From a virus (lineage: Duplodnaviria; Heunggongvirae; Uroviricota; Caudoviricetes): a stretch of DNA of 10,853 nt. The first letter of the stretch is position 1. The number at the start of each line of letters is the position of its first letter. Positions 1-10,853 of this stretch are shown in pieces. The position numbers and the translations under genes are program-made. The notes below the pieces were generated by a model. It was not told the origin of the DNA and searched no databases. It worked only from the letters and a program-made list of their open reading frames with translations. The stretch lies in the IMG/VR virus record IMGVR_UViG_2695420478_000001; one strand, 5' to 3'.

Positions 1-122
1 GTCGCTGGTCGCTGGTCGCTGGTCGCTGGTCGCTGGTCGCTGGTCGCTGGTCGCTGGTCGCTGGTCGCTGGTCGCTGGTCGCTGGTCGCTGGTCGCTGGT
101 CGCTGGTCGCTGGTCGCTGGTC
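1..122. repeat. Perfect heptanucleotide tandem repeat (GTCGCTG)n, 17 full copies plus a partial one; truncated by the window edge
   Basis: Direct reading: the unit gtcgctg repeats without a mismatch from 1 to 119, then gtc before diverging. The array may continue to the left of the window. Confidence 0.95.
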
Positions 123-131
123 TGGCAGCAT
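1..131 (-). CDS. Putative 5' end of a minus-strand gene: ATG at 131..129, then MLPD followed by (QRPATSD)n encoded by the heptamer repeat; partial, continues beyond the window
   Basis: Minus-strand sequence aaaAGGAtgattttATG places an AGGA ribosome-binding site 7 nt upstream of the ATG. The repeat has no stop codon in any frame on either strand. Orientation matches the surrounding operon. The gene body is not visible. Confidence 0.3.
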   Translation of the reverse strand, partial: MLPDQRPATSDQRPATSDQRPATSDQRPATSDQRPATSDQRPA

Positions 132-305
132 AAAATCATCCTTTTATGAAAATCAACGTTTTTTGAGCACTCGCACACAAAAAATTACCGCATTGGTTGC
201 AACGACAACCTTCATTTTGCGGAGCATATGACAAATAAAGTACGGGTGCGTTGAGGATGCCAGACACATCAGAGGTGGCGGGAGATTACTCCCCTGCCTG
301 GTCTC

Positions 306-461
306 TTACTTCTCAGATTCGTAGTCTACGAAGACAGCGACCTCCGTCTGGCCGGTTCGGATTCGTACCTCGCAGAAGTCTTTCCTCGTTACCAGTGCTA
401 TCACTACGACGGTAATACAGATGACGATCAGGGCGATTAACATCGCCTTTTGCTGCTTCAT
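306..461 (-). CDS. Hok/Gef-family type I toxin, 51 aa, HokD/RelF-like (MKQQKAMLIALIVICITVVVIALVTRKDFCEVRIRTGQTEVAVFVDYESEK)
   Basis: Manual translation of the minus strand from the ATG at 461 to the TAA at 308..306. GGAG ribosome-binding site upstream. N-terminal transmembrane helix plus the conserved RK.LCE..R....EVA motif typical of Hok/Gef toxins (recalled family features). Below the 60-aa cutoff of the ORF track. Confidence 0.85.
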   Translation of the reverse strand: MKQQKAMLIALIVICITVVVIALVTRKDFCEVRIRTGQTEVAVFVDYESEK

Positions 462-636
462 AGCCTACTTCTCCTTGCCTTTCGGCACGTAAGAGGCTAA
501 CCTAAGTTTGTAAGTCATAGATTTGGCCTCAGATTAATGTTAAGCGTCCTGCAAGACGCGTAATGTTAACTGGGGCTTTTCTCTGTCTGCCTTACGGCTG
601 CATGCCCGAGGCAGACAGCCTCAAGCACCCGCAGCT

Positions 637-664
637 ATTCTACAGTAAAAACTCGCGCTTTCAA
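637..664 (-). promoter_or_regulatory. Candidate sigma70 promoter TTGAAA-16 nt-TAGAAT reading leftward; the -35 overlaps the Q stop codon (pR'-like position, or the hok promoter)
   Basis: Minus-strand reading gggaaaTTGAAAgcgcgagtttttactgTAGAATagc. The position immediately downstream of Q is where lambdoid late promoters sit. Confidence 0.35.
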
Positions 665-1086
665 TTTCCCGCACGTCCGGCAAACTGACTGGCCTGTGAT
701 CCTGATGGTTCACGCTCAACGTACCTGTCCATTTCCAGCTTTACTCCCTGCATGATCAACATCCCCTCAATAACACCTTCTGCTTTTTGCAGTACCCGCC
801 CGGCCCAGCAATCAGAGCGCCCATGCTTACGGCCCAGTGACATAAGCGTCATCCCGAACACATAATAATCATACAGAAAATCATGCAAATCGCTGTTGTT
901 GACGTTCAGTTGCGCCATGCAATTGCTGATAATCAGCGCATCGTCATCGGTACACTGAGGCCGTGATTTAACCTTTGACGGGATCAGCCCCTTAAATCCG
1001 GCGGCAATGGGCGACCAGCTCACATCCTCATGATTATTGGCCACCCATGCGCCCCAGCGTTCAAGCACCTGCTGAATATCACGCAT
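661..1086 (-). CDS. Q: Late-gene antitermination protein Q (Q-family antiterminator, 933W/phage 21-like short form, about 141 aa)
   Basis: ORF 661..1170. Start chosen at the internal Met ([14 protein letters not shown]...) because its ATG overlaps the NinH stop (GATGCGTGA). Size and sequence resemble short Q proteins. Last gene of the early-right operon, after ninG and ninH. Confidence 0.75.
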
Positions 1087-1279
1087 CAGAGTCTTTCCCC
1101 TTATCCCATCCACGGTGAACCATAAGGACACCGTTGACGACGGCGTGCCGTTTGCCTTCTTTATCGCCAATATATTTTCTGACCGTGTTGCGACTACAGT
1201 TCAGTATTCTGGCTACCTCGGTCTGATTTTCATATGCCTCAACGAGCATGTCAGGAATGGTTTTTACTGTGAACGTCAT
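1079..1279 (-). CDS. ninH: NinH (small Fis-like helix-turn-helix DNA-binding protein), 66 aa
   Basis: [26 protein letters not shown]...RKYI... closely resembles lambda NinH as I recall it. Position between ninG and Q as in lambda. ATGA overlap with the ninG stop. Confidence 0.85.
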
Positions 1280-1881
1280 GCGGCCTCACTTCTGCTGTTT
1301 CGCAGGTCTTTGAGTTTCTGTTGGTACTCTGCCTTGATGGCCCTGCACTCTTCGACAGTCCAGCGATGGCGGTTATGGTTTGATTCGATTTCGTCTACTG
1401 CTTCCTGCCCGATGCGGTTAATCAGTTCGACGCGATACGGAACGAGATTTCCGCTTTTGTGCTGGTTGCACACCACGCATTGCTTGTGAATATTGCGTTC
1501 ATCAAATCGGAGTTGAGGCGCCGCAGCAGTTGTCCGGTAATGTCCGGCATCCCACTGAGCAGACGTGAGCGTTCCGCACGAGATACATGGTAAGTCGCGG
1601 TCTCTTTCTCTGATGAAGGCGTTTACGGCTTGTTGGGCTTGTTTAATCCAGTAACTGCGGGGCTTTAAGGCGAGTTTTCGAATCTTAATTTTATCTTTCT
1701 GTTTCTGCTCCTCTCGTCGTCGTTTCTTCTCTGCTGTTTTTTCCGCCTTTTCGCGTTCTTTATTTCGTCGTTCGAGCGCTAATTTAGTTCCGTGTTCCGG
1801 GCTGCACCACCACTGATTTGAGAATGCCGGGTGAAACCATTCCTTACAGATTTTGCATTTCCTTCGCGCTGGTTTAGCCAT
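1276..1881 (-). CDS. ninG: NinG / Rap recombination protein (structure-specific endonuclease), 201 aa
   Basis: Cysteine-rich N-terminus (CKICKEW...CSPEHG), a basic K/R/E-rich linker and a C-terminal C..C/H motif typical of lambda NinG. Position upstream of ninH and Q. Confidence 0.9.
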
Positions 1882-2609
1882 TAAGCAGCCTCCCCTGTTA
1901 CTTTAAGCATTCCGTTATCTAGCAGCTTTCTTGTCAGCCACTGTTGACCACGCCCGGTGATTTTTGTGGTGAACGATATCTGTATTCCGTGATTTGTGTT
2001 GACCGCTGTTTCTTTCACTGTGAAATAGCCACGATCCATATATTCCTGCATTGGCACATTGCGCCGGGAGCCTGAAGCAATAAGGATTTTGTGATCGCGC
2101 ATCCACGCAAACAGTTTGTTTGGACCAATACCAACAACCTTTGCAAAGTTTCCAATCAAAATTCCGCTGGACTCGCCAACGCGATCGGCAAACTCAACTT
2201 TAGGTGCTGCGAGAGCAAGCTGTTTCTCCAGTTCAGCCTTCTGGTCTTCAAGGTCGGCCGCAAGGCGCAATGCCTCAGAAAAGGTTTGTGGTATTTTCGC
2301 GGTTGCCCCTTCGAGTTCTCGCCAGCGGTCAACAAGGCGAGCGGTGAATTCCGGCGACAACTGGGCAACGACAATAATGCTGTCGCGCTTACCTTGTTCG
2401 CCCTCAAAAACGTAAGCCTCTACGCCACGAAGTAATCCTAAGTTATTGATTTTTTCGAAAACCACCATTGGGGGATTTCGGATCACACCTCGAACCGCCA
2501 GTCGTTCAATGGATTGTTTCACCTTGTCATGACGACTTCCCACCAACTCAGCGATTTCAATGCTTGTCATTTTGATGGCATTGCTATTTATCAGCTCATT
2601 CATTGTCAT
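1881..2609 (-). CDS. Phage antirepressor / regulatory protein: N-terminal Rha-type domain plus C-terminal ANT (KilAC) domain, 242 aa
   Basis: N-terminus ...[22 protein letters not shown]... (Rha-like). C-terminus ...[39 protein letters not shown]... (ANT-like). Stop overlaps the ninG start (TAATG). Confidence 0.75.
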
Positions 2610-2635
2610 GTCCTCTCACATTGAAAATTCAGTAA

Positions 2636-2664
2636 TAAAAAACCCAGCCGAAGCTGGGTTTGTT
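2636..2664 (-). terminator. Intrinsic terminator between roi-like and ant genes (hairpin cccagc-cgaa-gctggg followed by a 7-T run on the minus strand)
   Basis: Minus-strand transcript reads aacaaacccagcttcggctgggttttttatt, a GC stem followed by a U-run. Confidence 0.6.
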
Positions 2665-2677
2665 AAGTTGTCAATTG

Positions 2678-3355
2678 TCAGTAGCGATGCAGTGAAGGCG
2701 GCAACTCTTTGTTCTTAAGCCTTACCCATGCGGAAAGGTTCGTTGGTCCGTCTGGCTCATTAATATCAACATCTCGTGTGTGGTTGATTAAAACATCTCT
2801 CGCCATTCCGATAACATACGAAAACTCATGACCGTAGTCGTAGCATCTGCCGGAATAGTTCGATTGAATTTGTTTTAGCGCCGGATACAGTTCGCGGAAT
2901 AATGCCTGTGAGCGGTTAGCATAATCCCATAACCATACAAGGCTGTTTGCTTCTTTTGCGGAAAGCTCGTTGGTGCTCTTCTCTTGTTTGCCAGTATTTT
3001 TCTTGCACTGGCTGAAATAGCAGTCTTCCAGTTTTTCGAACACATCCCACGCCTGATCGGTTTCGAGCATTTTGGCGTGACGGGCTGCTCCGCGTTCTGT
3101 CCAGAGGATGAGGGAGCGGGCATTTTTACCAACTAACCCGATTGTTTCGGGTCTGTTCTTAAACTCGCGTAATTCGTTTTTTTCAATTTTAAAGTAATGC
3201 TTTCCGGGCATGAATCGCGTCGTGTTGTTCAGAAAGTTATCAGAAATGTTTTTGATTTTTGTTCCGTAAAGGTGAGCCAACAGTTCAGTAGTAATTACGG
3301 GGATCTGGTTATAGGTAACAGGGGAAAGGTTTTCGACAGAAATTTGAACAGCCAT
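2678..3355 (-). CDS. Roi-like DNA-binding protein with N-terminal ORF6N domain, 225 aa
   Basis: ...[23 protein letters not shown]...[17 protein letters not shown]...[33 protein letters not shown] matches the ORF6N pattern found in HK022 Roi-type proteins (recalled). GAGG ribosome-binding site 5 nt upstream of the ATG at 3355. Confidence 0.7.
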
Positions 3356-3518
3356 AATGACCTCGCGTTTCGATAATTTTTACCTCGCCACCGTCAGGTG
3401 CTAATCATCGTGGTGGCGAACTGTGCGGGGTTAGCACTACCGGTCGAAACATCCGGCGAGCCTTTCGGCTCCCCCACACAGCCCGCCATAAATCGCGAAT
3501 GTGACTGTGCTTAGCGCA

Positions 3519-4983: not shown

Positions 4984-5199
4984 TCACTTAAAATCCAGAC
5001 TCCGGATAATTCTGTTGCGCTGAAACTCATTGTTGAGTTTGAACAACCGTCGAAGAACACGGTCACGCGGATAGCGTCGTGCGGCAGGTGAATGCTCATA
5101 CAACTCATCAAGCGGCAAACTGGACGATGAACGATACCGATACCAACGCACCAACTCTTCACGAAAATTAGCCCTGACAAGCTCAGCTATCGTACTCAT
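4984..5199 (-). CDS. Hypothetical protein, 71 aa, first gene after the tR2-like terminator
   Basis: ORF preceded by a GGAGG ribosome-binding site 9 nt upstream. Tightly packed against the lar-like gene (10-nt gap). No family recognised. Confidence 0.45.
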   Translation of the reverse strand: MSTIAELVRANFREELVRWYRYRSSSSLPLDELYEHSPAARRYPRDRVLRRLFKLNNEFQRNRIIRSLDFK

Positions 5200-5228
5200 T
5201 TCTTAAAGCCTCCAATTACTCTTCCTCA

Positions 5229-5259
5229 AATAAAAAGGCCTGCGATTACCAGCAGGCCT
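5229..5259 (-). terminator. Intrinsic terminator downstream of ren (tR2-like): stem ggcctgc/gcaggcc followed by ttttta ttt on the minus strand
   Basis: Minus-strand transcript reads ...aggcctgctggtaatcgcaggcctttttatttgagg. Its position between ren and the nin genes corresponds to lambda tR2. Confidence 0.6.
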
Positions 5260-5284
5260 GTTACAAGCTCAGTGATGTAGATGG

Positions 5285-5575
5285 TCATCTTTTAACTCCA
5301 TATACCGCCAATACCCGTTTCATCGCGGCACTCTGGCGACACTCCTTAAAAATCAGGTTCGTGCTCACCTTTCCTTCCCGTTCTTCCCTGGTAGCAAACC
5401 GGTAATACACCGTTCGCCAGACCTTACCATCAATGACAAGGATTCCTGCCCGCGCCATTTTAGCCGCGGCCTGATTTATACTGGTTACGGTTGCGCCTGT
5501 TAGCGCGGCAACGTCCGGCGCACAGAAGCTATTATGCGTCCCCAGGTAATGAATAATTGCCTCTTTGCCCGTCAT
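5285..5575 (-). CDS. ren: Ren protein (lambda-like), 96 aa
   Basis: MTGKEAIIHYLGTHNSFCAPDVAALTGATVTSINQAAAKMARAG... is near-identical to lambda Ren as I recall it. Same length and same position after P. Confidence 0.9.
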   Translation of the reverse strand: MTGKEAIIHYLGTHNSFCAPDVAALTGATVTSINQAAAKMARAGILVIDGKVWRTVYYRFATREEREGKVSTNLIFKECRQSAAMKRVLAVYGVKR

Positions 5576-6273
5576 ACACTTGCTCCTTTCAGTCCGAACT
5601 TAGCTTTAATTTCTGCGATCTTCGCCAGAGCCTGAACATGATTTAGAGGTCTGCCGCCCATGACAGGAAGTTGTTTTACTGGTTCAGGAATCACCTCACC
5701 ACGGTTAATTCTCGCAGTCATATGGACAAGCTCATCTGCGGCCTTGCGCCGTAATTCCGCGTCAGTCAGTGCATTGGCCCGCATGTTCTGGTACAGGTTG
5801 GTAACCAGCCAGTAGTGCGCGTTCGATTTCCACGGATAAGACTCTGCATCCGGATACAGGCCTCGCTTCCGGCAATACTCGTAAACCATATCAACCAGCT
5901 CGCTGACGTTTGGCAGTCCGGCGATAACGGATGCTTCTTCCCGGCACCATGCAACAAACTGCCCGGGTGATGGAAGAAATGGTCGATTCTGCCGACGGGC
6001 TACGCGCATTCCTGCGTTAACCTGTTCCATCGAGGTGATCCCGTTTTCCCGGAAAGCCAGAACCCACTGGCGGCGGATTTCATTCAGTTCGTTCTGGTCC
6101 CGGTTAGCCAGACTCGCCGGGAAAGTTGCCAGTAACTGGCTGAACACACCGTTGATGATCTGCGCTACCTGTTGTACCTGCGGCTTTTCGTCGTACTGTT
6201 CCGGCATGTTGTTGGTGATCCGACGCATCTGCTCACGGTCAAAGTTAACCATCTGTGCGGCGATGTTTTTCAT
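5572..6273 (-). CDS. P: Replication protein P (DnaB helicase loader), 233 aa, lambda-type
   Basis: MKNIAAQMVNFDREQMRRITNNMPEQYDEKPQVQQVAQIINGVFSQLL... matches lambda P in sequence and length (233 aa). Overlaps the O stop and the ren start. Confidence 0.95.
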   Translation of the reverse strand: MKNIAAQMVNFDREQMRRITNNMPEQYDEKPQVQQVAQIINGVFSQLLATFPASLANRDQNELNEIRRQWVLAFRENGITSMEQVNAGMRVARRQNRPFLPSPGQFVAWCREEASVIAGLPNVSELVDMVYEYCRKRGLYPDAESYPWKSNAHYWLVTNLYQNMRANALTDAELRRKAADELVHMTARINRGEVIPEPVKQLPVMGGRPLNHVQALAKIAEIKAKFGLKGASV

Positions 6274-7208
6274 AAATCCACCCCGTAAATCCAGTCAGTG
6301 TTTGTCAGGTCGAGTTTTGGTTTTCCAGCTGTCACGCCAGCCTGTTGCTTGTTACGGTTGATTTCGAGTTGGGTCCACTTGTCGCGGAGTTTGGCCGGAC
6401 TTAGCACGTTACCGGACCAGAAGTTGTCCTGGCATGCCCAGCGGAACAGCACGCACATGTCGCGGTGGTTACGTCCGTCACGTTCACGCATCAGGCGGAT
6501 ATCGTTAGCCCACCCTGCAAAATTCGGTTTTCTGGCTGATGGTGCGATGGTCTTCACCATGTCAAACATCCACTCTGCGGCGGTCAGGTCTTCTGCTGTT
6601 CCCCACTTGCTGCCGCTCTGAATTGCAGCATCCGGTTTAACCACAGAAAGATCGTTTTCTGGCTGGTCAGAGGATTCGCCAGAATTCTCGGACGAATAAT
6701 CTTTTCTTTTTTCTTTTGTAATAGTGTCTTTTGTGTCCCCCTGTTTTGAGGGATAGCAATCCCCTAATTTGAGGGATGTTTTATCCCTCGTTTTAGGGGA
6801 TTTTCCCTCGTTTTGAGGGATGTCCCTCATTTTAGGGGAACTTCCCTCGTTTTGAGGGATGCACCATTCTGAGATGTTTTTATTTGGTCCAAACATGCCG
6901 CCTTGCTGCTTGATAATATTCATTCTGACGAGTTCTAACTTGGCTTCATTGCACCGTTTGACAGGTAACTTTGTAATCTCGCTAAGTTGAGAATCGGTGA
7001 TTCTGTCCATTGGTTTATTCCACCCATAGGTTTTACGCAGAATGGCAAGCAGCACTTTAAACTGTCGCTTGGTCAGATCTGCGCCTGAATAAGCCTCAAT
7101 CAGCATATTTGATAGTCTGGCGTAACCATCATCGAGATCTGCCACATTACGCTCCTGTCCGGCAAAGTTACTTCTGCCGAAGTTGAGTATTTTTGCTGTA
7201 TTTGTCAT
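6270..7208 (-). CDS. O: Replication initiator O, 312 aa, lambda-type, with the origin embedded in its coding sequence
   Basis: MTNTAKILNFGRSNFAGQERNVADLDDGYARLSNMLIEAYSGADLTKRQFKVLLAILRKTYGWNKP... matches lambda O. The iteron array and AT-rich tract lie inside the gene. Confidence 0.95.
   Translation of the reverse strand: MTNTAKILNFGRSNFAGQERNVADLDDGYARLSNMLIEAYSGADLTKRQFKVLLAILRKTYGWNKPMDRITDSQLSEITKLPVKRCNEAKLELVRMNIIKQQGGMFGPNKNISEWCIPQNEGSSPKMRDIPQNEGKSPKTRDKTSLKLGDCYPSKQGDTKDTITKEKRKDYSSENSGESSDQPENDLSVVKPDAAIQSGSKWGTAEDLTAAEWMFDMVKTIAPSARKPNFAGWANDIRLMRERDGRNHRDMCVLFRWACQDNFWSGNVLSPAKLRDKWTQLEINRNKQQAGVTAGKPKLDLTNTDWIYGVDL
6690..6862. repeat. Replication origin (ori-lambda type): six iterons of about 19 bp (6736-6860, TCCCTC-N-GAGGGA dyads spaced about 20-23 bp apart) plus an adjacent AT-rich tract (6690-6735)
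   Basis: Six iterons read directly, starting near 6736, 6759, 6783, 6803, 6823 and 6842. The AT-rich tract is cttttcttttttcttttgtaatagtgtcttttgtg. Confidence 0.9.
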
Positions 7209-8006: not shown

Positions 8007-8654
8007 ATGAAAACGATGCATGAAATTATCGGGGAAAGGATCAAGTCCCTTAGAGAAGCTAAAGGACTTAGCCAGGCTCAATTGGCCAAGCTTTGCGGCT
8101 GGGCTGCGCCTTCACGCCTGGGGAACTACGAGTTAGGAACAAGAAAGGTTAGCGCGGATGACGCGCTGGTTCTTGGGGCGGCACTCGGCGTATCTCCGGC
8201 AAAAATAATGTTTGGCGAGGATTCAGACGCTGTATTTCGCCAATATGAGTACCCGTTATTTTCTTCAGTGCAGGCCGGGCCGTTTTCGGAGGTTGGAAGC
8301 TACACAGCAAGCGATGCAAAGGCATGGGTCCCAACGACCACAAAAGCCAGCGAAAAAGCTTTCTGGCTTGAGGTGAAAGGCCATTCTATGACTGCGCCAC
8401 AGGGCGTAAGGCCGAGTTTTCCTGAGGGTATGCTGATACTCGTTGATCCGGCCGAGCCGGTAGAGTCTGGGGATTTCTGCGTGGCTTCTGCAAATGGTGA
8501 TTCAGAGGCAACGTTCAAGAAGTATGAGAAGGATGCAGGGGTTAGTTACTTGGTTCCATTGAATCCGGCATACAGAACCCTGGACTGCGATCACACATGC
8601 CGCATCATAGGCAAGGTAGTTAAGGCTCAGTGGCCTGAAGAGACGTTTGGATGA
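8007..8654 (+). CDS. cI: CI prophage repressor (N-terminal helix-turn-helix, C-terminal LexA/S24-type autocleavage domain), 212-215 aa
   Basis: Helix-turn-helix motif [23 protein letters not shown]-terminal domain with Ser (KGHSM) and Lys (FKKY) catalytic-dyad context. Divergent from cro. The start may be the second ATG at 8016. Confidence 0.9.
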
Positions 8655-8704
8655 TGGATGGTCGCAGAGATGCTCGTAGAGCATACAGCGATGCAGGAGA
8701 ATTT

Positions 8705-9139
8705 ATGGCACTTAATTTAGAAAGAATATCTTTTATAACCCCATTTGATAGCAGCGAAGAACCCAACCAACCGACGCTTAATTTTACATGCAATGAATTT
8801 CCTGCGCGGCTATCGATTGATTTCAGGGTTGGTATGATCGGGTTGAAACCAAATTCAAGATATAATTTGGGTATTATGGTAATCCCCGCGCACCTAATTA
8901 TAAAAAAAGGTGAGGAAATTCAATTCCCTGACGGCTCTTCGGAATCAGTTTCACTTTTCATCGATACGAAAGATAGCCATTTTGAAACAGGGGTTGGCGG
9001 ACAGGTAATAGTAACATTGAAAGAAATTAGGGTCCCAGCTAAAGGGCTGTATAGTGTTATAGGGATATTGCAAGATAATGAAGACCCTAAAAATGAACTT
9101 CATAAAAATGAATCATTTTTCACCGTAGAGCTATTATGA
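8705..9139 (+). CDS. Hypothetical small soluble protein (144 aa), first gene of the cI-linked AT-rich cargo cassette
   Basis: ATG at 8705 with an AGGAG ribosome-binding site 6 nt upstream. Same strand as cI. No recognisable motif. AT-rich composition. Confidence 0.6.
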   Translation: MALNLERISFITPFDSSEEPNQPTLNFTCNEFPARLSIDFRVGMIGLKPNSRYNLGIMVIPAHLIIKKGEEIQFPDGSSESVSLFIDTKDSHFETGVGGQVIVTLKEIRVPAKGLYSVIGILQDNEDPKNELHKNESFFTVELL

Positions 9140-9756
9140 GTGACGACAGTAATTTAAATAATCATGGAAAGCAAGACACCAACATATCTGAAAGCCGGAG
9201 GTTGAAGGTTGTTGGCGGTTCCGATTTTGAGGCTGAATTTGATAATTCTCCCACCAAGGTGCAAAATAATTACATAAAACCGCCACAAACGGAGGAAGAA
9301 GTGGGAACGATCAGCAGAGAGGAACTTGATGCTCGCTTAGCTGCTAATAAAGCAGAGATGGAGTCTATTGCTTCTTCCATTAGGACTGACATGGCTCTAT
9401 CTCGTGAAAGCGTTAATGTCCAATTTGCATCACTTAATGCAGCCATAAGCTCTCTATCGTCCAAGATCGATGGAAAGATGGATAGCGCTGCTGGCGATAT
9501 AAAAGCAATTAATGGGAGATTCGAAGGAATTCAAGGACAAATAACAGGGGTTAATACCGCAATTAGTGGTGTTCAGTCGGGTATTTCTATACGATTAGCC
9601 ATTTTTAGTGTCATTATCGCTGTAATAGTTGCGATTCCCGGGCTGGTATCAGCTTTAAAGTCAGACCACGCACCTTTGCAACAGCCTTCCACTTTGCAAG
9701 CGCCGCCACAAAATACCCAGCCAACAGACAACAAAAAAATCACTCCCCAGCATTAA
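9136..9756 (+). CDS. Hypothetical tail-anchored membrane protein (206 aa): polar N-terminus, predicted coiled-coil, single C-terminal transmembrane helix, Pro/Gln-rich tail
   Basis: ATG overlaps the upstream stop (ATGA at 9136-9139). Hydrophobic segment IRLAIFSVIIAVIVAIPGLVSAL near the C-terminus. Followed by a strong terminator. Confidence 0.7.
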   Translation: MSDDSNLNNHGKQDTNISESRRLKVVGGSDFEAEFDNSPTKVQNNYIKPPQTEEEVGTISREELDARLAANKAEMESIASSIRTDMALSRESVNVQFASLNAAISSLSSKIDGKMDSAAGDIKAINGRFEGIQGQITGVNTAISGVQSGISIRLAIFSVIIAVIVAIPGLVSALKSDHAPLQQPSTLQAPPQNTQPTDNKKITPQH

Positions 9757-10026: not shown

Positions 10027-10073
10027 TTACACATTTTGTGATTGACCATTAAATCACAATATGTGACTATTAT
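10027..10073 (+). promoter_or_regulatory. Left operator/promoter (OL/PL): -35 TTGACC (10042-10047), 17-nt spacer, -10 GACTAT (10065-10070). Operators at about 10027-10043 and 10052-10068.
   Basis: Same AATCACA-N3-TGTG dyads as in OR. Positioned upstream of nutL and N. Confidence 0.5.
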
Positions 10074-10117: not shown

Positions 10118-10164
10118 GCTCTTTAAACAACGTCGAACACTCGACTACGTGGCTGAAAAGCCAG
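10118..10164 (+). promoter_or_regulatory. nutL-like site: boxA-like GCTCTTTAAACAA (10118-10130), small hairpin GTCGA-ACAC-TCGAC, boxB-like hairpin TGGCT-GAAA-AGCCA (about 10150-10163)
   Basis: Read directly. Lies between PL and the N start. Architecture repeated at nutR. Confidence 0.55.
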
Positions 10165-10261: not shown

Positions 10262-10534
10262 ATGTCCAGAAAAACAGAATTTAAAGGCACCGCAGCTTCT
10301 CGCCGTAGAGCTCGTCGCGCAAACCTGCAAAGTCAGGAGTCGATTAGCTCCGACAAGCTACACAGGCCAACCCCTTCACGAGTGGTCTTGCAATGCAAGC
10401 GCAAACCAGCAATGAGAGCAGAAGTTATAACTCTGACAACGTTGACCAGAAAATATGAAGGTTCAACTTGTCTTCCAAACGTAGCCATTTACGCTGCAGG
10501 CTACCGTAAATCCAAACAACTGACAGCAAGATGA
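10262..10534 (+). CDS. N: N-type transcription antiterminator (P22 gene 24-like) with an arginine-rich motif, 90 aa
   Basis: Start MSRKTEF... with a GGAGG ribosome-binding site (gggaggaatctATG). Arginine-rich motif GTAASRRRARRANLQ. C-terminus ...LPNVAIYAAGYRKSKQLTAR resembles the P22 gp24 C-terminus as recalled. Confidence 0.8.
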   Translation: MSRKTEFKGTAASRRRARRANLQSQESISSDKLHRPTPSRVVLQCKRKPAMRAEVITLTTLTRKYEGSTCLPNVAIYAAGYRKSKQLTAR

Positions 10535-10595: not shown

Positions 10596-10802
10596 ATGTC
10601 ATCAATCCGCTTAACTACGAGAATGAAAGAGGAAATCGCTCGTAACGCTTTAATTAAGTCCGGGGTGTTCACTGAACTTGAAGAAGTAACAAAGTTAAAG
10701 AACCAGCTTGCACTTGACGCCAGAGTTATTGCGTTTGGCGGGAAAAAGAAAACTGAACCGCCCCGGGAATCCTGGAGACTAAACTTCCTGAGAAAGAGGT
10801 AA
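10596..10802 (+). pseudogene. Early-left hypothetical gene (68-aa reading frame) disrupted by an IS insertion: codons from about 10754 onward are IS-derived
   Basis: Good ribosome-binding site (gagaggaattaatATG). The last 16 codons (TEPPRESWRLNFLRKR) are encoded by the IS left end that begins TGAACCGCCCCGGG at 10754. Confidence 0.5.
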
Positions 10803-10853
10803 ACAGGATGACTAAAAATACTCGTTTTTCCCCTGAAGTCCGTCAACGGGCAG
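10754..10853 (+). mobile_element. Left end of an IS3-family insertion sequence (IS629/IS1203-like), partial; continues beyond the window
   Basis: Terminal sequence TGAACCGCCCCGGGAATCCTGGAGACTAAACTTCC..., then orfA starting MTKNTRFSPEVRQRA, which I recognise as the IS629-type OrfA N-terminus. Confidence 0.7.
10808..10853 (+). CDS. IS3-family transposase OrfA, N-terminal fragment (MTKNTRFSPEVRQRA...), partial
   Basis: ATG at 10808 preceded by AGAGG. The protein N-terminus matches IS629-group OrfA from memory. Confidence 0.7.
   Translation, partial: MTKNTRFSPEVRQRA

Follow-up and report, generated by a model that had tools for sequence, protein, structure and literature searches.

An IS629 Insertion in the Nmad5 Gene Downstream of N in a torS-Adjacent Lambdoid Prophage

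The DNA analyzed here, referred to throughout as the window, comprises 10,853 bp and is the entire draft contig CYCI01000095.1 of assembly GCA_001285465.1. It carries an intact gene for an N antiterminator (90 aa, 10262–10534, plus strand), which matches the Pfam family PF25694 (N_peptide) with 109 bits (E = 1.6e-31), and whose same-length counterpart in relatives is annotated by RefSeq as “transcriptional antitermination N peptide”. Upstream of N, and on the same strand, we place a candidate nutL site at 10118–10145, made up of a boxA-like GCTCTTTAA (10118–10126) and the hairpin GTCGA-ACAC-TCGAC (10132–10145), which is present in both the minimum-free-energy and the centroid folds, with a z-score for the region of only −1.7. 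No consensus PL was found in a promoter scan, and the PL candidate TTGACC-17-GACTAT at 10042–10070 was picked by eye and carries no weight in the argument. Between cI and PL, two ORFs of 162 and 206 aa (8651–9756) correspond to what an earlier reading of this DNA (hereafter the original prediction) called a cargo cassette; these ORFs have no Pfam match in the precomputed tables, and L008, a contig with the same IS junction as the window, carries different genes at this position.

Directly after N, an ORF on the plus strand runs from an ATG at 10596 to a TAA at 10800–10802 (68 codons plus stop) and is a hybrid of prophage and IS629 sequence. Codons 1–52 (10596–10751) are native, codon 53 (10752–10754) is split, and codons 54–68 (EPPRESWRLNFLRKR) consist wholly of the left end of IS629, giving 52 native codons, 1 split codon, and 15 IS codons. 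The split codon reads ACT, with its third base contributed by the IS, in place of the native ACC, such that threonine is encoded either way. At 10740–10770, the window reads GGC GGG AAA AAG AAA AC|T GAA CCG CCC CGG G, where the bar marks the junction. The original prediction had placed the left end of the IS at 10754, inside a 68-codon frame, and both the frame and the comparison with the IS bear out these coordinates; its count of 16 final IS-encoded codons is right if the split codon 53 is included, and its claim that the IS truncates the first gene after N agrees with an ORF that directly follows N and with intact relatives that are 207 aa in length. Some intact relatives align with the window as far as 10756, because they read ACT GAG at the site, while the empty site in the window’s own lineage reads ACC GAA.

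IS629 starts at 10754 with TGAACCGCCCCGGG, and its first 100 bp (10754–10853, plus strand) are 100% identical both to nucleotides 1–100 of the complete 1310-bp element discussed below and to IS copies on many plasmids. These 100 bp hold the 25-bp left inverted repeat (10754–10778, plus strand), which matches the right repeat at 23/25 positions, and the start of the transposase gene orfA (10808–10853, plus strand; the gene call at position 10213 of contig L005 corresponds to window position 10808), which is co-oriented with PL. The left copy of a 3-bp target-site duplication, AAC, occupies 10751–10753, and AAC is also found after the right repeat in contigs L005, L015, and L016. The orfA ATG at 10808 is preceded by GAGG at 10796–10799, which we read as the orfA Shine-Dalgarno sequence, and the stop codon of the hybrid ORF sits between the two, 5 nt before the ATG. 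Read backward, the orfA frame itself stays open as far as IS nucleotide 4 and meets a stop only in the TGA at the tip of the inverted repeat; with this TGA and the hybrid ORF stop included, all three incoming frames are stopped before orfA.

The complete element can be read from L005 (JAOTHS010000057.1, 24.4 kb), a sister contig that differs from the window at 2/10,258 positions and spans the whole of the IS, at 10159–11468, exactly 1310 bp. Over its full length, this element is 100% identical to the copy annotated as “IS3 family IS629, OrfA, OrfB” in LC567824.1, and the inserted element is thus IS629 itself, a transposable element common in E. coli, where the original prediction had described it as IS3-family and IS629-like. 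Its termini are TGAACCGCCCCGGG...CCCGGGGCGGTTCA, with imperfect inverted repeats of 25 bp (left repeat, TGAACCGCCCCGGGAATCCTGGAGA; reverse complement of the right repeat, TGAACCGCCCCGGGTTTCCTGGAGA); a literature text search with the inverted-repeat sequence returned no match. OrfA matches PF01527 (HTH_Tnp_1), and the joined transposase product of 404 aa matches HTH_Tnp_1, HTH_21, rve, rve_3, and rve_2. An A-run is found at nucleotide 373 of the element, which also contains the ALIL frameshift pseudoknot (Rfam RF01497, 120 bits). All the features by which IS629 and the IS3 family are recognized are therefore present, namely sequence identity, TG...CA terminal repeats, two frameshift-joined ORFs (overlapping orfA, with its HTH domain, and orfB, with its DDE/rve domain, joined by a programmed −1 frameshift), and a 3-bp target duplication together with an empty site. 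The same 1310-bp element, ALIL pseudoknot, and 3-bp target duplication characterize IS629 in the lambdoid prophages of EHEC, EPEC, and STEC strains. Close variants of IS629 go under the RefSeq name “IS3-like element IS1203 family”.

The window stops inside IS629 because the short-read draft assembly broke at the repeat, 100 bp into the element. We found the partner contig by searching with the hybrid ORF that leaves the right end of the IS, which gave a 182-aa protein (P0001); the contigs encoding it include L015, which is CYCI01000088.1 of the same assembly, GCA_001285465.1. The first 102 bp of L015 are IS sequence, up to the last base of the right inverted repeat; the contig then continues as AAC CGA AGA AGT GGA CCA G..., and shows 0 mismatches to L005 in 8841 bp. 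In L005, AAC stands directly on both sides of IS629, as expected for the 3-bp target duplication. When window positions 10596–10753 are joined in silico to L015 with one AAC removed, an uninterrupted ORF of 207 codons results, and the predicted empty site with its single AAC occurs exactly in 12 IMG/VR prophage contigs. The 1149-bp IS-free reconstruction, which runs from the end of N through the interrupted gene to the start of cIII, is 100% identical to contigs L022, L023, and L025, the last of which is an IS-free sibling, IMG/VR record IMGVR_UViG_2695420646_000001, with 99.5% identity to the window along 7.7 kb and 99.96% along the 2.4 kb past the insertion. The two comparisons proposed with the original prediction have hence both had the predicted outcome: extending the sequence rightward yields the right inverted repeat, the transposase, and the AAC duplication (L005 and L015), such that a complete IS lies downstream of the junction, and the IS-free relatives yield the intact 207-aa gene, the 3′ sequence of which is different from that of the hybrid ORF.

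L015 holds the last 155 codons of the interrupted gene and then cIII, kil, gam, bet (RecT), exo (YqaJ), a number of small early genes, xis (Exc), an int gene for 357 aa, and torS. The order seen in L005 and L015 is that of a lambda-type PL operon, with N followed by cIII, kil, gam, bet, exo, xis, and int on the same strand, and of the distal genes called on L015, only bet is not intact, being five codons short at its 3′ end. The thermoregulator RNA of cIII is intact too (Lambda_thermo element, 88.5 bits). The original prediction held that the operon is severed from PL and N; this stands insofar as there is a physical gap of 1310 bp, but not with respect to the distal genes, which are present on L015 apart from the five bet codons. 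The most useful outcome of our analysis is a correction: what looks like severing is a break in the assembly, and the distal operon is in essence intact. A caution goes with it, namely that when a contig runs out inside an IS, the operon can look severed even though its remainder sits on the next contig.

Three further observations concern this side of the insertion. In bet (L015 1448–2218, corresponding to L005 12814–13584), a CAG-to-TAG change lies 5 codons before the normal stop, shortening the product to 256 aa vs 261, and with this nonsense codon the ATGA through which bet normally overlaps exo is lost. The prophage terminates with int, which directly borders torS (L005 18760–18860; L015 7391–7486), and its attachment site therefore adjoins torS. 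Finally, a second hybrid ORF of 181–182 aa (L005 11392–11937; L015 23–571) starts in the right end of the IS and continues into the 155-codon remnant, and is annotated as an Nmad5 family protein by gene callers and by NCBI.

The interrupted gene is, as judged by its profile matches, a member of the Nmad5 family (PF18757). The 68-aa product of the window matches profile positions 1–55 of 206 with 50.6 bits, and the reconstructed 207-aa protein matches positions 1–206 of 206 with 231.9 bits, where the curated cutoff of the family is 27 bits; intact relatives are named “Nmad5 family putative nucleotide modification protein” by RefSeq. The 5′ fragment in the window (10596–10753, plus strand) retains codons 1–52 and two bases of codon 53 of the 207 codons, and the insertion accordingly splits the gene into a 52-aa N-terminal stub, extended by 16 IS-derived residues, and a 155-aa C-terminal remnant. 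We note that the Nmad5 name rests on a prediction from genomic association, and that it is here the sole gene between N and cIII. A structure search found no solved relative of the protein, no PADLOC defense-system match was obtained, and its PHROG family, phrog_1965, is without an assigned function. Homologues are found directly after N in isolated phages, for example HK542, HK244, mEp235, SH2026Stx1, and the PhiR12 series. A Dhillonvirus phage is viable after deletion of nmad5, and its nmad5 resisted cloning, apparently through toxicity (PMC11846954). The Nmad5 gene thus behaves as dispensable accessory cargo, and it is the only gene demonstrably lost through the insertion. Strain Z1323HEC0393 has, after N, an Nmad5 gene that is annotated with a frameshift (L003 18593–19215), a second and independent inactivation in a prophage.

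An exact-product look-up of the 68-aa ORF, which gene callers predict in exactly this form, places the junction on 13 public contigs, the window included, and the junction is therefore not a chance one. The carriers are several draft E. coli assemblies and four gut metagenome assemblies. Among 5,426 complete E. coli genomes, no single-piece match to the exact junction was found, with the best relatives stopping at 10756 and having the gene intact, and neither 50,697 phage records nor IMG/VR gave a match to it; from these searches, no sequenced free phage is known to carry the junction. In a search with the whole window, no complete genome covered more than 71% of its length. The junction occurs on at least three mosaic backgrounds (that of the window, that of L008 with another immunity region, and that of L012 with other sequence upstream of 10469), which shows that recombination among lambdoid prophages has shuffled the IS-bearing segment.

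Taking these observations together, we read the locus as a simple transposition of IS629 into a torS-adjacent lambdoid prophage, which the insertion alone has probably not made defective, and we put the probability of both parts holding jointly at roughly 85%. The type of event is already known: for pathogenic-type E. coli, IS629 entering a lambdoid prophage is a textbook case. The second part of this reading depends on where in the transcription unit the IS has landed. Codon 53 of the 207 in the Nmad5 gene lies downstream of N and upstream of the first strong early-left terminators; terminator-like hairpins are found at L005 positions 11926, 12072, and 12110, between the end of the Nmad5 gene and cIII, and expression from cIII to int would thus depend on antitermination even without the IS. 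On induction, transcripts from PL would acquire N at the candidate nutL, and, since the insertion is downstream of both this site and N, the polymerase entering the IS should already be N-modified. Such a polymerase would be expected to read through IS629, as it would through the native terminators before cIII, and the expression of cIII, kil, the red genes, xis, and int would probably be cut little or not at all. If distal expression is indeed little reduced, the prophage is probably not defective from the insertion alone, although it could be defective for other reasons, as the late region lies outside the sequence compared.

There are precedents for read-through of this kind. Adhya, Gottesman, and de Crombrugghe (1974, cited in PMC2147009) reportedly described that lambda N releases polarity in E. 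coli, which is its classical activity. More generally, the polar insertions relieved by lambda N include IS elements, such as an IS in gal transcribed from PL, and lambda phages with IS2 in the PR operon are viable. The present case resembles these classical insertions in having an IS downstream of a nut site (here a candidate) in an N-modified operon; unlike in them, a 90-aa N homologue takes the place of lambda N, and IS629 that of IS1 or IS2.

The original prediction drew the opposite consequence, namely that the IS is strongly polar, such that cIII, kil, the red genes, xis, and int are uncoupled from PL and N, and the prophage is excision-impaired and fixed in the chromosome together with its cargo. 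In favor of this, the IS separates N from the remaining operon by 1310 bp of foreign DNA. Rho-dependent terminators can occur in IS elements, as in the case of IS2, the polarity of which was studied in galEP3 and is Rho-dependent (PMC3737525). The trapping of prophages by IS elements, which are over-represented in O157 prophages, has also been published for O157, with IS629 in an excisionase as an example (PMC5359411), and the junction studied here is in none of the free-phage records searched. However, a consensus scan of IS629 in the PL direction finds only one weak terminator-like site, to be met by a polymerase that should arrive N-modified from the candidate nutL, and the hairpins native to the operon must be passed by N before cIII regardless of the IS. 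The distal genes that would be trapped, xis and int included, are intact, save that bet is five codons short at its end. An IS also resides in Sp5, the Stx2 prophage of O157 Sakai, which is nevertheless inducible and transferable to K-12 (PMC2669165). Sp5 is similarly a lambdoid prophage with an IS inside a transcription unit; we note, however, that no gene is broken by its IS, which sits upstream of the lysis region, whereas the IS studied here has broken an accessory gene in the early-left operon. Finally, the occurrence of one and the same junction on at least three mosaic backgrounds argues that the allele has kept recombining among prophages. We therefore consider strong polarity with fixation of the prophage to be unlikely. 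The claim of a defective or excision-impaired prophage finds no support in the sequence, in which xis and int are intact and the native hairpins already call for N, but neither does the sequence disprove it. The case also shows that the presence of an IS in an N-antiterminated operon is not enough to score a prophage as inactivated, for which expression or induction data are needed, and neither the torS-adjacent prophage nor its immunity-region cargo can be assumed to be immobile in the source strain.

The insertion may also be more than neutral damage, through a transposase that is coupled to induction, through selection for the loss of Nmad5, or through both; taken jointly, we give these proposals rather little credence. 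With IS629 placed just after N and co-oriented with it, prophage induction could couple a burst of transposase to the SOS response, which we propose because the PL-driven hybrid ORF ends 5 nt before the orfA start codon. Inactivation of Nmad5 may in turn be selected in lysogens, a suggestion prompted by the apparent toxicity of the Dhillonvirus nmad5 (PMC11846954) and by the independent frameshift in another prophage.

Related insertions are found in the same interval in other prophages. Four prophages have an IS629/IS1203 copy between N and cIII, each at a different site (L002 5927–7236, L004 18609–19918, L017 ∼5185–6495, and L005 10159–11468), in strain 06-3462, an O111:H11 Stx1a prophage, O157 644-PT8, and the window lineage, and all 4/4 are co-oriented with PL, which in so small a sample can only hint at a bias in orientation or site. 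The insertion in the window is thus like known IS629 insertions in prophages, with copies between N and cIII in O157, O111, and another STEC strain, but differs from them in its site, codon 53 of the Nmad5 gene, which is absent as an insertion site from the complete E. coli genomes and phage records searched. O111:H11 strain 88.0502 was considered as a carrier of the same event and excluded, as alignment shows another first gene after N and another insertion site.

That the two flanks of the IS are not contiguous, recombination between IS629 copies (by inversion, deletion, or translocation) having moved the distal operon away from N, would be in keeping with a draft source genome in which no single contig reads through the IS, and with assembly L007, which joins the same left junction to an unrelated locus via an IS copy, but is highly improbable given that both flanks occur in one assembly and each breaks ∼100 bp inside the IS, that AAC matches on both flanks and the reconstructed gene is identical to that of IS-free relatives, that L005, identical to the partner contig and nearly so to the window, spans the IS on one contig, and that, in complete genomes, sequence matching the right half of L007 flanks a degenerate remnant of an IS3-family element at a fixed island locus. 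In L007 (CYFY01000090.1, 332–1700), the junction between the Nmad5 gene and the left end of the IS is followed by an unrelated flank starting AACCTGATT, which in complete genomes borders this remnant beside an iuc/ibrAB/PerC island. We have accordingly set L007 aside as evidence of an IS-mediated rearrangement: with its right half matching the flank of a known remnant at a fixed locus, it is most simply, and probably, a chimeric contig, although it could represent a real recombination between two IS copies. The join in L007 passes through an IS copy with a 53-bp internal deletion.
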